Virus record (IMG/VR): IMGVR_UViG_3300014964_000592
Span: 1 to 64,000 of that record
Length of the DNA stretch: 64,000 nt
Reading direction: 5' to 3' (one strand)
DNA from: an uncultured virus (IMG/VR IMGVR_UViG_3300014964_000592)
Lineage: Duplodnaviria; Heunggongvirae; Uroviricota; Caudoviricetes
In this document: one piece after another, positions 6,218 through 58,557 of the stretch
How positions within the stretch are numbered: position 1 is the stretch's first letter
Layout of the letters: each line of letters opens with the position of its first letter
Translations under genes and position numbers: made by a program
Notes under the pieces: model-generated
Databases searched by the model: none
What the model saw: only the letters and a program-made list of their open reading frames with translations
Told to the model about the DNA's origin: nothing

Positions 6218-6290
6218 TACGACTTTGTGTAATAGGTCGTAAGAGAACGACACCGAAATGTTTTGCGATGCGGAAATAACAGTAATTTAG
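6218..6290 (+). promoter_or_regulatory. Putative late promoter of the tRNA operon (palindromic box plus degenerate -7)
   Basis: TACGAC-N12-GTCGTA at 6218-6241; TAATTTAG at 6283-6290. Confidence 0.6.
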
Positions 6291-6303: not shown

Positions 6304-6376
6304 CGCGGGTTGGAGCAGTTGGAAGCTCGCCAGTTTAACTTGCTGGAGGTCGTCGGTTCGAGTCCGACACCCGCTA
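6304..6376 (+). tRNA. Initiator (fMet)-like tRNA with AAC (Val) anticodon
   Basis: Cloverleaf: acceptor CGCGGGT/ACCCGCT with C1xU72 mismatch; D stem GAGC/GCTC (A11:U24); anticodon stem CCAGT/GCTGG with loop TT-AAC-TT (AAC at 6337-6339); T arm GTCGG-TTCGAGT-CCGAC; discriminator A73; CCA not encoded. Confidence 0.9.
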
Positions 6377-6404
6377 CAAATAAAATCACTTACAAACAAA
6401 ATCA

Positions 6405-6776
6405 ATGAAAAAGTTAACCCTACAAATTGACAAAAAGTGCTTTCAGGCAATTCTGAAAGGCGAGCAGAAAGTCGAGCATCGGAACGTGTATCCCAATAAC
6501 GCCAAGAAGTATGTCATCGAAGAAGACAAGACTGATGAAAAGGGCGAAGCCATCACGGTTGTAACACCGGTTCACTACGATGCCCTCACCCTTATCAATG
6601 GTCGCCGCAAGGATGCGCCCCGTCTGACCGTGGAGGTCGTATCGGCTGAATTTGTCGTACTGACCGACGAAGACGGCAATGATTTGACCTTTGAAGAGAA
6701 TGGCGAAGTGTACTATGTTTGTCAGGTATGGTACACCCTCGGAAAGGTTCTTGAAACCGCCAACATCAACGAATAA
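6405..6776 (+). CDS. ASCH/PUA-like domain protein
   Basis: LTLQIDKKCFQAILKGEQKVEHR resembles the ASCH G-x-K-x-x-E-x-R motif. Confidence 0.65.
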   Translation: MKKLTLQIDKKCFQAILKGEQKVEHRNVYPNNAKKYVIEEDKTDEKGEAITVVTPVHYDALTLINGRRKDAPRLTVEVVSAEFVVLTDEDGNDLTFEENGEVYYVCQVWYTLGKVLETANINE

Positions 6777-6803
6777 TCATTAACCCTTTAACACTATAAG
6801 TGA

Positions 6804-7004
6804 GTTAGACGTAGAATTGATAACAACTATGGCCCCCGTCGGAACATGAACGGTGCCGGTGCCGGTGGCCGACTCGTAGCCCGTCGCACCCCTGCGGGCG
6901 TAGTTGCTGGTCGTAGCCAGCTCGGAAATCGTGAACAGCGTCGCGCTGACCTCCGCGCAGCCTTTGCTGACCAAATCCGCGCCGCTGGTGGAACAACCGG
7001 CTAA
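6804..7004 (+). CDS. Small Arg/Gly-rich protein with putative GTT start (66 aa)
   Basis: An in-frame TGA immediately precedes GTT. Translation: VRRRIDNNYGPRRNMNGAGAGGRLVARRTPAGVVAGRSQLGNREQRRADLRAAFADQIRAAGGTTG. An internal ATG exists at codon 15. Confidence 0.7.
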   Translation, partial: VRRRIDNNYGPRRNMNGAGAGGRLVARRTPAGVVAGRSQLGNREQRRADLRAAFADQIRAAGGTTG

Positions 7005-9235: not shown

Positions 9236-9922
9236 GTTAAAAAGCCACGTAAGACAGATTATAACGCGAGAGTCACAAAGGCACTCAAGGGAAAGGGCGT
9301 ACCCCACCTTGAAGAGCCGATGTACCGCGTATCCGCGTCGGCTTTTACAAAGGCTATACGACGCGGCAAGGCATCGCAAGGCAGGAACGGCTGGATGGTT
9401 GACCTGCATAGCAAGAGCGAATACAAGCGGATGCGATGCTTTCTTACCCCGGACGGAAAGACGGGCGTAGCAATCAAGCGCGATGGAGATGTAGTGTCTG
9501 TATTCTCCACAAGCGGAAAACGAGGAGCAATGGCAAAAATCATACCGTTTGCGGTCGCTAATGGCGGTCGCAAGCTGGATTGTTATGCTTTCTCGGATGG
9601 TCGCAGTTCACTTCACAACATGTACGGAAGATTCGGTGCAAAGGCTCGCGGCAAAATGACCTTTGACCCGCAATATAATCCGGTTTTCCAACGCACGGCG
9701 CAGGCTAATCCCGGTATGCGCAGACCCTCTCATGTCGTGGCGATGACGCTGCCGAGCAGTCTTGCCGGCGTTATGCGGGCGTACAATGCGGATAGGAAGA
9801 TTGACCTTGGGCGCGTAAGGTCGTATGACGATTACGAAAAGATGATGGATGACCGAAACGCGCATCTTGCATTACGCGGAAAGTCAAGTGGTGTCAGAGG
9901 CGCACTTGGCGGCGGTAAATAA
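9236..9922 (+). CDS. Basic hypothetical protein with putative GTT start (228 aa)
   Basis: Sequence reads TGA TAG CGA GTT AAA AAG CCA... The GTT is 28 codons upstream of, and in frame with, the ATG at 9320 and lies 7 nt after the previous stop. Confidence 0.7.
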   Translation, partial: VKKPRKTDYNARVTKALKGKGVPHLEEPMYRVSASAFTKAIRRGKASQGRNGWMVDLHSKSEYKRMRCFLTPDGKTGVAIKRDGDVVSVFSTSGKRGAMAKIIPFAVANGGRKLDCYAFSDGRSSLHNMYGRFGAKARGKMTFDPQYNPVFQRTAQANPGMRRPSHVVAMTLPSSLAGVMRAYNADRKIDLGRVRSYDDYEKMMDDRNAHLALRGKSSGVRGALGGGK

Positions 9923-9944: not shown

Positions 9945-10538
9945 ATGGCAAAGATTGAAGAAATTATCCCGTTCATCCTTTACTTTGAAGCCGGCGTAAA
10001 CAAACGCTATCTTTCACTTCCTCCCGAACAGATATTTGAGCAGGCGAAAAAGACGGGCTTCGCAAATGACCCCGACGATGCCGGCGGCGCGACCATGTGC
10101 GGTATCACGATAGCGACCTACAAGGCGTACTGCAAGCGGAAAGGCTATCCCGTACCTACGGTGTTCAGCCTGCGTAACATCACATACAAGCGTTGGCGCG
10201 ACGTACTCAAGACGCTTTTCTGGGACAGATGGAAAGCCGATGAAATCAAAAGCCAAGCCCTTGCGAACAACCTCGTCGATTGGGTGTGGGCAAGCGGCGT
10301 GAACGGCATCAAGATACCGCAGAGGCTTCTCGGCGTGACACAGGACGGAATTGTCGGCCCAAAGACGATAGCCGCAGTCAACGCAGCCAACGAAGCGGAA
10401 CTATTCACGAAGATTTACGAAGCCCGCATCAATTTCGTGGATGGCATCGTGCGCAGAAAGCCGAGCCAGAAGAAATTCATCAAGGGCTGGAAACGACGTA
10501 TCAACGCAATCACCCTATCCGGGCTGAAATTCACATGA
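9945..10538 (+). CDS. Endolysin, glycoside hydrolase 108 family with peptidoglycan-binding domain
   Basis: GFANDPDDAGGATMCGIT; DWVWASG; QRLLGVTQDGIVGPKTIAAVN; FIKGWKRRI. Confidence 0.9.
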   Translation: MAKIEEIIPFILYFEAGVNKRYLSLPPEQIFEQAKKTGFANDPDDAGGATMCGITIATYKAYCKRKGYPVPTVFSLRNITYKRWRDVLKTLFWDRWKADEIKSQALANNLVDWVWASGVNGIKIPQRLLGVTQDGIVGPKTIAAVNAANEAELFTKIYEARINFVDGIVRRKPSQKKFIKGWKRRINAITLSGLKFT

Positions 10539-30157: not shown

Positions 30158-31246
30158 GTTAATCAGTCATTTTATTTCGATTACGCAAAGCGTTTCTTCC
30201 CCGGCCTTGTGCTGGCTATCGTAGAACGCCTCAACGAGAAGCGTGCCAATTCCGCTCTCACCTACCTTTACAAAGAAAAACTTCGCCCGCAGTTTTCGCT
30301 TGATGGCCGCTGGGCTTCCATCCTTGCGGAATACACCCGCGTAGCCGCCGACGTTGTGGCACTTGACTCCGAGCTTCCGCTCAAGAGCCGTGACACACTG
30401 GAGGTTGCTTCCGGCACAATTCCCAAAATCGGTATGAAGCTCTACCTGACCGAAAAGCAGATGAAAGACGTTGACTCGATGATTGCGCAGGGTGTTCCCC
30501 TCCAGACCATCATCGACAACATCTTCGCTGATACCCCCCGTTGCATCGAGGGCATCTGGGAGCGCATCGAAGACATCTTCCTTTCGGAGCTTTCGTCGGG
30601 TGTCGGCGTTTCCGAGCGCAACAACGGCACAGGTGTGCGCATCAACATGAATTTCTATGACGACAACCAGTTCGCTGTTTCCAAACTTTGGAGCAACACC
30701 GACGCAACTCCGCTTGACGACATCCAGAAACTTGTTGACAAGTCCATTACCGACGCAAACACCATCATCGACGCATACGCTGACGACACCGCCCTCGGTC
30801 TTCTCTACAAGAACAAGCAGGTGCGTTCACAGTTCGCGTTCAATCAGGGCATCGCCATGACCGGTTCGACCACCGTGCCGGTGCTTGACTTTGCGAAGCT
30901 CCAGCAGATTTTCCTCACCAAGTGGAACATCAATCTGCACCGCGTCGCCCGCCGTGTCAAGACCGAGCTTAACGGCGAAAAGAAAAACCATACCCCGTGG
31001 AAGACCGGAACAATTTCCTTTGTCTGCGATGAAGAGCTTGGCTCACTCGTATGGACTAACGTTGCCGAGGCTTCGCGCCCCGTTGAAGGCGTTGTCTATC
31101 AGACTGCCGACCAGTACATCCTCGCAAAGAAATATTCCAAGACCGACCCCCTCCGCGAGTTTACCGCTTCCGAGGCTATGGTTGTGCCTGTGTTGAACAA
31201 CGTTGACCGCATCTACACGCTCGACACTCAGACAGTTCAGGAATGA
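30158..31246 (+). CDS. Major capsid protein with putative GTT start (362 aa)
   Basis: AADVVALDSELPLKSR, GTIPKIG, ATPLDDI and TDPLREFT motifs. The frame extends 17 codons upstream of the GTG at 30209 to GTT-AAT-CAG (VNQSFYFDYAKRFFPGLV), with no ATG/GTG/TTG back to the in-frame TGA at 30128. Confidence 0.88.
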   Translation, partial: VNQSFYFDYAKRFFPGLVLAIVERLNEKRANSALTYLYKEKLRPQFSLDGRWASILAEYTRVAADVVALDSELPLKSRDTLEVASGTIPKIGMKLYLTEKQMKDVDSMIAQGVPLQTIIDNIFADTPRCIEGIWERIEDIFLSELSSGVGVSERNNGTGVRINMNFYDDNQFAVSKLWSNTDATPLDDIQKLVDKSITDANTIIDAYADDTALGLLYKNKQVRSQFAFNQGIAMTGSTTVPVLDFAKLQQIFLTKWNINLHRVARRVKTELNGEKKNHTPWKTGTISFVCDEELGSLVWTNVAEASRPVEGVVYQTADQYILAKKYSKTDPLREFTASEAMVVPVLNNVDRIYTLDTQTVQE

Positions 31247-32942: not shown

Positions 32943-32967
32943 TTAACCCCTTAACACCCATAAACGA

Positions 32968-33516
32968 GTTACAAACAACGCACCCAAAGTTTGCGCGGTC
33001 GGCATCAAAAAGCTGTACTATGCCGACACCAGCAAGGTAACGGCAGACCTTACCGGCGCATTGCTCGCCGCACTGCTTGCCGACGAAGCCACCAAGGAAG
33101 TCAAGAACATCCATCAGGACACGTGGACTATCGAAGAGAGCGAAGCCTCGCAGGACGGCTATCGCAATCAGCTCACCGGTTCTATCTACCGCATGGGAAC
33201 GAAGACCATGGGCGACGTAACTTTCAACTGGACTATCGGTCAGTACGACTATCCTACCAAGGCTGAGTTCCTCGGTGGTGTCGCTACCGACAAGTCGTGG
33301 AAGCGTCCCCGCGGTGTCGTCGAAATCCACAAAGTCCTCATCGCACTCACCGAAGACAATCAGTATTGCGTTCTGCCCTACGCCAACGTAGCCGGTCGTG
33401 AAGCCAACACCGACGGCGCAGTAGGTCTGGGTATCGTCGGAACGGCAATGGAGCCTACCGACCCCAACATCGCATCCGAATACTGGTTCGACTCTTCCGA
33501 GGTAGTGACCGCGTAA
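32968..33516 (+). CDS. Major tail (tube) protein with putative GTT start (182 aa)
   Basis: GTT ACA AAC...VTNNAPKVCAVGIKKLYYAD...VKNIHQDTWTIEE...FNWTIGQYD. In-frame TAA at 32944 and no canonical start before the TTG at 33061. Confidence 0.82.
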   Translation, partial: VTNNAPKVCAVGIKKLYYADTSKVTADLTGALLAALLADEATKEVKNIHQDTWTIEESEASQDGYRNQLTGSIYRMGTKTMGDVTFNWTIGQYDYPTKAEFLGGVATDKSWKRPRGVVEIHKVLIALTEDNQYCVLPYANVAGREANTDGAVGLGIVGTAMEPTDPNIASEYWFDSSEVVTA

Positions 33517-58111: not shown

Positions 58112-58285
58112 ATGCTTTGGATTGGAAATAAAGAGGTCGGTCAGCTTTGGATAGGCCAAAAGCAAGTGCAAGCCCTTTATGTCGGAGCTAAACTTGTATG
58201 GGAAGCCGTCAGCAGTTGCTTCGGTAGCGGCTTTTGGCGAGAAAAGCTACCATGGAAAGGGAAAGACGCATGGAAAAATTTTTAA
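58112..58285 (+). CDS. Small tail-associated protein (57 aa)
   Basis: MLWIGNKEVGQLWIGQKQVQALYVGAKLVWEAVSSCFGSGFWREKLPWKGKDAWKNF. Confidence 0.7.
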   Translation: MLWIGNKEVGQLWIGQKQVQALYVGAKLVWEAVSSCFGSGFWREKLPWKGKDAWKNF

Positions 58286-58305
58286 CCCCAAATACTGTAT
58301 AACGA

Positions 58306-58557
58306 GTTAAGAAAATCACAAAATGGATTAAGGAAAGCAATCGCTACAAGCATCTCGCAGGGGGCATCGCAATAGGCATGGTCAGCAATACGCCTTATTG
58401 CGCTGCCCTTTGCGGCTGTGGCGTTGCATCCGCACTTGAGCTAAAAGATAAGCTCTGGGGCGGTGAATGGGATTGGATAGACTGGTCGCTGACCGTCGCC
58501 GGTGTCGCCATCGGCTATTCCATCCGAGTAGGCATCACATTACTGATTAAATCCTGA
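58306..58557 (+). CDS. Small membrane protein with putative GTT start (83 aa)
   Basis: Sequence reads TAA CGA GTT AAG AAA...: VKKITKWIKESNRYKHLAGGIAIGM...ELKDKLWGGEWDWIDWSLTVAG. It fills the gap between flanking genes; the first ATG is codon 25. Confidence 0.72.
   Translation, partial: VKKITKWIKESNRYKHLAGGIAIGMVSNTPYCAALCGCGVASALELKDKLWGGEWDWIDWSLTVAGVAIGYSIRVGITLLIKS

Follow-up and report, generated by a model that had tools for sequence, protein, structure and literature searches.

We analyzed a 64,000-nucleotide (nt) stretch of DNA from an uncultured Caudoviricetes virus, referred to as the window herein, which spans bases 1-64000 of the 72,347-base IMG/VR record IMGVR_UViG_3300014964_000592 (provirus class, estimated to be 74% complete). 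A tRNA gene at 6304..6376 on its plus strand very probably encodes a phage initiator tRNA that has been retargeted from AUG to GUU. The tRNA is conserved and covaries in its stems among related phages, GTT occupies the start position of genes in the window, and the first codon changes together with the anticodon from phage to phage.

The tRNA combines an initiator body with a remodelled anticodon arm

ARAGORN called this gene as the sole tRNA in the window and labelled it tRNA-Val(aac), at 6304-6377. The Rfam tRNA model RF00005 matched it over the full model with 48.6 bits (cut-off 29, E 2.4e-7), which places it within the tRNA family. It lacks an encoded CCA and folds into the cloverleaf CGCGGGU/UG/GAGC-AGUUGGAA-GCUC/G/CCAGU-UUAACUU-GCUGG/AGGUC/GUCGG-UUCGAGU-CCGAC/ACCCGCU/A; in DNA letters, the D arm is GAGC-AGTTGGAA-GCTC, the anticodon arm CCAGT-TTAACTT-GCTGG, and the variable loop AGGTC. 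As in initiator tRNAs, positions 1 and 72 do not form a Watson-Crick pair (C1xU72), the discriminator is A73, and the D stem (GAGC/GCUC) sets A11 opposite U24. The acceptor stem contains G2:C71 and C3:G70, which are the determinants for formyltransferase. The paired 1:72, elongator-type D stem, and purine 37 of an elongator tRNA-Val are all absent. The anticodon arm does not follow the initiator pattern either, since the pairs 29:41, 30:40, and 31:39 are A:U, G:C, and U.G in place of three G:C pairs, and the anticodon is AAC, with A34 and U37, in place of the CAU that goes with Met. All three members of the valyl-tRNA synthetase (ValRS) identity set cited in work on an engineered initiator system, A35, C36, and A73, are present (bioRxiv 10.64898/2025.12.21.695813). 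The original prediction had listed an fMet-like (formylmethionine-type) body, C1xU72, A11:U24, A34, U37, and the stem pairs A:U, G:C, and U:G, and we found every one of these details.

When bacterial genomes were searched with the 26-nt 5′ half of the tRNA, four contigs matched, including those of a Muribaculaceae isolate and of Paramuribaculum intestinale. The identical tRNA lies within prophage DNA on these contigs, and at the L016 copy two more T-stem pairs are changed with compensation. Apart from these copies, the initiator tRNA-Met(CAT) at L019:1501-1573 was the best match in the host genome (Muribaculaceae, G001), with 73% identity over the full length, and the nearest annotated tRNAs in the phage database were tRNA-Met/fMet at ∼82%. 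The phage tRNA shares with this host initiator C1xU72, A73, G2:C71, C3:G70, A11:U24, the variable loop AGGUC, the T loop UUCGAGU, and G30:C40. However, the host arm, UUGGG-CUCAUAA-CCCAA, has three G:C pairs, the loop CUCAUAA with a CAU anticodon, and A37, whereas the phage arm has one G:C pair, the loop UUAACUU with AAC, and U37, and the phage tRNA is predicted to carry Val. Host tRNA-Val(TAC) is unlike the phage tRNA in both body and arm (G1:C72, C11:G24, A37, arm TCTGC-CTTACAA-GCAGA). Because the host initiator is closest and host tRNA-Val differs in body and arm, we read the gene as an initiator body with a remodelled arm and not as a tRNA-Val graft; copying of the arm from host tRNA-Val was ruled out by the differing arm sequences. 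The description of the tRNA as chimeric in the original prediction thus holds for the initiator body with its remodelled arm, but not for an arm borrowed from tRNA-Val.

The altered arm is under selection

Scanning with the 5′ half only, which left the anticodon arm unconstrained, we found 11 viral loci with an identical arm in all, and the same was true of the 4 bacterial-genome loci. The 11 viral loci differ by compensatory changes in the T stem (C51:G63 to G:U and G52:C62 to A:U). Position 72 is U or C at the loci found with the 5′ half, mismatched with C1 every time. Scans anchored on the loop, whose patterns prescribed the AGGUC variable loop and G26 as well as the loop itself and the 3′ D-stem strand, recovered distant bodies with covarying anticodon stems (CCAGU/GCUGG, CUGGU/GCCAG, CUUGU/GCAAG, UUGGU/GCCAA, and CCCGG/CCGGG). 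For 22 distinct variants, 94.4% of cells were paired compared to 38-49% in controls with slid partners, and 13 of 21 stem pairs showed compensatory changes on both sides. Position 1:72 is unpaired in 21 of the 22 (CxU, CxC, UxU, UxC, or CxA), with U1:A72 at L196 as the exception. G30:C40 was retained in 20 variants, U31.G39 in 18, G2:C71 in 21, and C3:G70 in 20, with one additional U:G at the last position; A11:U24 was present in 22 of 22, the search patterns having fixed that strand for most of them.

The tRNA is under structural selection and has been remodelled rather than decayed. This had been proposed on the basis of the paired stems, and the comparison of homologues bears it out, with an identical arm in the 11 viral and 4 bacterial loci, compensatory changes in the T and anticodon stems, and no random drift of the anticodon loop. 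Other registers of the loop (a UUA or UAA anticodon, or a 9-nt loop) were set aside, as the form that covaries has a 5-bp stem and a 7-nt loop.

GTT occupies the start position of five genes in the window

We scanned for GTT codons that open long reading frames with no earlier canonical start. Five plus-strand sites were obtained, at 6804, 9236, 30158, 32968, and 58306, each of them within GA-GTT-A, so that the five GTT starts of the original prediction do exist. At the conserved N terminus, all five genes lack a canonical start, although in the 9236 case this rests on near-identical relatives. Across both strands of the record, 5 of 15 GAGTTA sites are orphan starts vs ∼3% of all GA-NNN-A sites.

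The gene at 30158..31246 (plus strand) encodes the major capsid protein (phrog_29, Pfam Phage_cap_E) and begins AGA-GTT-AAT. Among 80 related loci, the 12 with 69-100% identity have GTT, one has GTA, and the 67 at 59% identity have ATG. The ATG codon aligns exactly with GTT (V-N-Q-S-F-Y-F vs M-E-K-S-L-Y-F), and an in-frame TGA lies immediately 5′ of GTT at 7 of the 12 loci. Expression of the capsid protein through read-through or fusion to an upstream gene was ruled out: the gene before it terminates out of frame with it in the window, and one or two in-frame stops precede GTT in relatives.

A tail-tube-like protein (phrog_14600) is encoded at 32968..33516 (plus strand) with the start CGA-GTT-ACA. 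Here too we compared 80 loci; 11 with at least 74% identity have CGA-GTT or AGA-GTT, and 69 with 58-62% identity have ATG at 1-4 codons from the aligned position. Were translation to begin at the earliest canonical codon, TTG at 33061, ∼28 conserved residues covered by the PHROG profile would be lost. The gene at 58306..58557 (plus strand; CGA-GTT-AAG) encodes an 83-amino acid (aa) membrane-type protein (phrog_38535) whose residues 2-77 align to profile positions 2-77, which places profile position 1 on GTT, and this GTT is kept in record G012 (89% identity).

The remaining two genes gave no function in Pfam and PHROGs searches. One, at 6804..7004 (plus strand), encodes a 66-aa Arg/Gly-rich protein and starts TGA-GTT-AGA, 428 nt past the tRNA. 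The other, at 9236..9922 (plus strand), encodes a 228-aa protein with a probable GTT start (TAG-CGA-GTT-AAA) and its first canonical ATG at 9320. The evidence is weakest for this gene, since only relatives with 97-100% identity were found, among which 3 of 4 substitutions between GTT and ATG are synonymous.

The first codon changes with the anticodon

The single capsid relative with GTA (locus L115, record G009) starts TGA-GTA, and the same record encodes a tRNA with a TAC anticodon in the loop UUUACUU, together with C1xU72, A11:U24, and U31.G39. The small open reading frame (ORF) 3′ of this TAC tRNA also opens with TGA-GTA. Across phages, 6 of 7 with the AAC tRNA open this small ORF with GTT and the seventh, G005, opens it with ATG; the TAC phage uses GTA, and two phages with a GAC tRNA use GTC. 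We then inspected the regions downstream of 28 distinct GAC-type loci. The ORF is present in 27, where it starts with GA-GTC in 26 (22 TGA-GTC, 3 AGA-GTC, and 1 CGA-GTC) and with ATG in one. The first canonical start of the GTC-start ORFs lies 13-26 codons inside, and two have none at all. The link between AAC and GUU starts that had been proposed from a single sequence is thus supported by homologues, in which GTT goes with AAC, GTA with TAC, and GTC with GAC, as expected if the tRNA decodes the first codon of these ORFs.

The GAC tRNAs form a sister family that is much the larger among the matches listed (L448-L555; records G084, G090, G119, and G141) with the loop UUGACUU, C1xA72, and a C30:G40 stem. 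Their targets are small Arg-rich proteins with GTC starts (VRRR..., VKRRK...). We saw no GTC-start structural gene in two complete GAC phages. One GAC phage has two GTT starts after Shine-Dalgarno sequences of the AGGAGG type, which fits wobble pairing of G34 with U. By comparison, the homology-defined starts in AAC phages are all GTT, which argues against inosine at position 34.

Among the at least 109 matches listed for initiator-like bodies with a UU-NNN-UU loop, the anticodon was GAC in 82, AAC in 18, TAC in 2, CAT in 3, CCT in 3, and GCT in 1; CAC was not seen among them. Valine anticodons other than CAC make up 102 of the 109 matches listed, in keeping with a constraint imposed by ValRS; GUG is already read by the host initiator. 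In a separate observation, the bodies with CCU (L510, L530, and L533), GCU (L458), and CAU (L483, L491, and L497) had no homologue of the small ORF within 1.3 kb downstream.

The tRNA and the GTT starts also occur together. The tRNA was present in every record, five of five, in which a capsid gene opening with GTT is preceded by >30 kb of sequence (G000 plus the L105, L106, L112, and L117 contigs). Records of ATG-start capsid relatives contained a UU-NAC-UU tRNA in 0 of 50 cases, 14 of these records being at least 90% complete. For ATG-start tail-tube relatives, the AAC type was found in 0 of 50 and the GAC type in 14 of 50. These GAC-bearing phages use GTC for small ORFs, hence the system is present although the tail-tube gene uses ATG.

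A three-part module surrounds the tRNA

The tRNA sits in a 203-nt gap among small plus-strand genes in an early/DNA-metabolism block, and the next gene begins 28 nt 3′ of it. This gene, at 6405..6776 on the plus strand, encodes a 123-aa ASCH-like protein (phrog_625), which we found directly 3′ of the tRNA in all cases; by tblastn, 8 other phage records likewise have a phrog_625 homologue adjoining the tRNA. The G005 homologue scored 24.8 bits against Pfam ASCH (cut-off 21.2), a domain whose fold is predicted to bind RNA. Together with the Arg/Gly-rich protein, these genes make up a conserved module, found at 6304-7004 of the window and in G003, G004, G005, G006, G007, G009, G084, G090, and G117, that consists of the tRNA, an ASCH-like protein of ∼120-130 aa, and an Arg/Gly-rich protein of 52-68 aa. 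The Arg/Gly-rich protein is homologous across AAC, TAC, and GAC phages and lies 400-550 nt 3′ of the tRNA, past the ASCH-like gene. In complete GAC phages, only small Arg-rich proteins would depend on the tRNA, whereas in the clade of the window the capsid and tail-tube genes would do so too. The small-protein module is thus probably the conserved core, to which this clade seems to have added structural genes.

Paralogous small basic proteins of the type V-R-R-(R/K)-K with GA-GTT starts were seen at G004 15837 and 16159, G003 18500, and G007 2778. Further ones lie at G117 3564 and 3879 and at G084 6166 and 7132, the G084 pair behind AGGAGG.

Start context and a proposed mechanism of initiation at GUU

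Inspection of 27 GTT/GTA starts from 10 records revealed A at -1 in 27 of 27, G at -2 in 26, and A at +4 in 22. The 26 GTC starts carry the same upstream GA, and the G at -2 often belongs to an in-frame TGA. Compensatory A37U/G mutants, assayed over 45,258 mRNA variants, are reported to show that nucleotide 37 of the Escherichia coli initiator pairs with the mRNA at -1 (PMC10018350). We attribute the pyrimidine U37 of the phage tRNA to pairing with the invariant A(-1). The sole C37 variant of the tRNA (loop AUAACCU) has a candidate start GAGGACGCUGG-GUU 40 nt downstream, with G at -1, a single case.

The loss of two of the three G:C pairs from the anticodon stem should present no obstacle, because G30:C40 is kept. 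This middle pair is described as the essential one of the three in E. coli, where it suffices, and natural au/GC/gu variants exist (PMC5389676). A stiffer 29:41 pair is reported to impair recognition of tRNA-Val by ValRS, such that a three-G:C stem may hinder charging (bioRxiv 10.64898/2025.12.21.695813). From the side of ValRS, a retained G30:C40 with both neighbours weakened is the compromise that one would predict.

We propose the following mechanism. The 1x72 mismatch, G2:C71, C3:G70, A11:U24, and G30:C40 would direct the tRNA to the P site and away from elongation, from which the mismatch in particular would exclude it. The AAC anticodon, with A34 presumably unmodified, would pair with GUU. 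A35, C36, and A73 probably make the tRNA a substrate of the host ValRS, whose recognition the weakened G:C flanks of G30:C40 are expected to favor, and the proteins would begin with valine or, if the charged tRNA is formylated, with formylvaline. The pyrimidine at position 37 would pair with A(-1) and thereby create a quadruplet start signal, A-GUU, that the host initiator with its A37 should disfavor. Since GUU heads at least five phage genes, including those for the major capsid and tail-tube-like proteins, their translation would depend on the phage tRNA. Possible benefits include a temporal gate, set by when the tRNA is expressed, or a safeguard against virion proteins being made in lysogens, and a defined Val N terminus. 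Independence from the host initiator may be another, at times when toxins such as VapC, reported to cut it, are active (PMC10264068).

Alternative explanations

The alternative that survives best retains initiation at GUU but has the tRNA carry Met or another amino acid in place of Val; we consider it improbable. It draws on the body, which resembles a Met initiator. Against it, methionyl-tRNA synthetase depends on the CAU anticodon, and the anticodons linked to matching starts (GAC, AAC, and TAC, with the counts given above) are all valine anticodons without CAC, in keeping with a ValRS constraint. An engineered initiator with AAC is reported to carry Val or formylvaline (fVal), and the 3.6% Met N termini obtained in that system were credited by its authors to the native initiator (bioRxiv 10.64898/2025.12.21.695813).

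Codon compensation, in which the gene would be a plain elongator tRNA-Val that adds to the capacity for GUU decoding, is very unlikely. Phage tRNAs are often explained in this way (PMC10264068), and the ARAGORN label Val(aac) would agree. However, 21 of 22 variants have the 1:72 mismatch and 22 of 22 have A11:U24, unlike the C11:G24 and paired acceptor end of host tRNA-Val, and the closest tRNA in the host genome is the initiator. Codon compensation also leaves unexplained why the first codon switches among GTT, GTA, and GTC with the anticodon and why the upstream GA is invariant.

We give still less weight to a tRNA-like RNA that does not decode, with the GTT starts coincidental. Such an RNA might act as a decoy or a nuclease-resistant stand-in, since phage tRNAs with altered loops have been proposed to evade anticodon nucleases and VapC cuts the initiator anticodon loop (PMC10264068), or it might be an RNA-processing signal, and it lies 28 nt 5′ of the next gene. 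Yet a decoy is expected to retain the loop that the nuclease recognizes, and neither role predicts the three-way match of codon and anticodon at homologous starts. Evasion of defense could still be a benefit of initiator function.

A decaying pseudogene or integration remnant of a tRNA-fMet gene, as might be imagined for a record classed as a provirus because phages often integrate into tRNA genes, was rejected as having almost no chance of being correct, for it is contradicted by covariation with compensatory changes in every variable stem, by a full cloverleaf inside the phage with flanks alike at 15 loci, and by the intact initiator that the host keeps elsewhere.

Several points weigh against a retargeted initiator or limit how far the case for it can be pressed. 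Production of the RNA, its CCA tail, charging, formylation, and the N termini of the proteins are predictions from sequence, and acceptance of the tRNA by host initiation factor 3 (IF3) and the 30S subunit is assumed. Two canonical G:C pairs are gone, the third position is U31.G39 and not the natural G31.U39, and U37 is unusual. The G at -2 is never A, so that simple pairing with U38 fails to account for it. A GUN start is not obligatory, as the small ORF opens with ATG in G005 and L581; record G008 pairs a GTT capsid start with an ATG tail-tube start, and G006, which is 94% complete, shows one GTT start only. G012 and G008 have GTT starts and no tRNA in the record, both being incomplete (66% and 16%, respectively), and in G012 the expected position of the tRNA falls past the contig end. 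In the wider set, the search patterns themselves account for much of the constancy seen in the loop, D stem, and variable loop, in contrast to the 15 loci found without constraint on the arm. Lastly, six-frame counts of orphan starts carry a high background of shadow ORFs, and a further count of this kind did not discriminate; the case was therefore built on homology-defined starts.

Relation to known systems

To our knowledge, every described natural initiator tRNA has a CAU anticodon and starts with Met, non-AUG starts being read by the same tRNA, and we know of no natural precedent for the start-codon reassignment implied here. Within the full-text literature, of which coverage was incomplete, we found engineered systems only and no natural non-CAU initiator tRNA or phage GUN start codon. 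The phage tRNA would be both an initiator and a phage decoding tRNA that lacks two canonical initiator features, the CAU anticodon and the three G:C pairs. If our reading holds, an initiator found in nature with a valine anticodon and a start codon to match would be an exception to the CAU/Met rule.

The crAss-like and Lak phages use suppressor tRNAs to recode stop codons of late genes. As in those phages, a phage tRNA would alter the reading of phage genes, especially structural ones, and make their translation dependent on a phage product. However, theirs reassign a stop codon in elongation, whereas the tRNA described here would reassign a start codon.

The closest engineered counterpart (see also 10.1101/2021.05.25.445580) is an AAC initiator built in E. 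coli, reported to start only at GUU and to yield 59% Val and 30% fVal, with ValRS charging and formylation limiting (bioRxiv 10.64898/2025.12.21.695813). Both tRNAs have an initiator body, AAC, and GUU starts, and the engineered one, which gives Val/fVal, is described as orthogonal to the other 63 codons. It keeps all three G:C pairs and A37 and is poorly charged and formylated, whereas the phage tRNA, known from its gene sequence, has weakened flanks, U37 matched to A(-1), and natural genes with GUU starts. If our reading is correct, the phage tRNA is a natural counterpart of synthetic orthogonal initiation that has been tuned at the named bottlenecks, the anticodon stem and position 37.

Initiators with incomplete G:C sets, of the au/GC/gu type described for some mycoplasmas and alpha-proteobacteria, share A29:U41 and G30:C40 with the phage tRNA, but they have G31.U39 and CAU where it has U31.G39, in the opposite orientation, and AAC (PMC5389676). 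The phage tRNAs proposed to evade nucleases likewise have an anticodon loop that differs from the host counterpart; as described, these keep their anticodon and decoding, whereas here the anticodon and the codon read are both changed (PMC10264068).

More tentatively, and with less than even confidence, we suggest that gut phages carry a self-contained valine start code. It would comprise a family of GAC, AAC, and TAC initiators (102 of the 109 matches listed), the three-gene module with its cognate GUN start, and a GA-GUN signal read through U37 and perhaps U38. In a clade of Muribaculaceae phages it would have spread to the capsid and tail-tube genes, such that a phage tRNA would gate virion production and shield it from events in the host initiator pool, such as cleavage of tRNA-fMet by toxins.

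For annotation, gene callers miss genes with GUN starts or set the start too far downstream, and tRNA annotators label the RNA tRNA-Val. The system offers a testable model of how a phage might control the translation of structural genes, whether by gating or by insulation, and the identical tRNA copy in a cultured Muribaculaceae strain provides a tractable host.

Flanking elements and other tRNA-like genes

A TAATTTAG box at 6283..6290 (plus strand), 14-21 nt 5′ of the tRNA, is a candidate promoter element of the Bacteroidota -7 type, for which we take TAnnTTTG to be the consensus. The string TAATTTAGC is unchanged at 15 of 15 related loci despite differing flanks, and TAACTTTG lies about as far upstream of the host initiator gene. 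A scan for sigma-70-type promoters and terminators around the tRNA gave nothing exceeding the shuffled expectation.

The motif TTAACCCY has four matches in the window, three of which, at 6780..6787, 32943-32950, and 58282-58289 (plus strand), lie 24-25 nt upstream of GTT starts. Strings resembling AACCyyTTAAAAC precede GTT starts in relatives, and the element could be a promoter or leader element. Directly 3′ of the 9236-9922 gene, an endolysin (Glyco_hydro_108 and PG_binding_3) is encoded at 9945-10538.

Two further kinds of tRNA-like sequence were noted. Genes with the arm CAAGC-CCAACGG-GUUUG and C33 gave 11 matches (L276, L353, L370, and 8 more). At G003:C1:54227-54350 (L227), the Rfam tRNA model scored 35.2 bits over 124 nt where ARAGORN finds none, and this stretch may be an interrupted or atypical tRNA.

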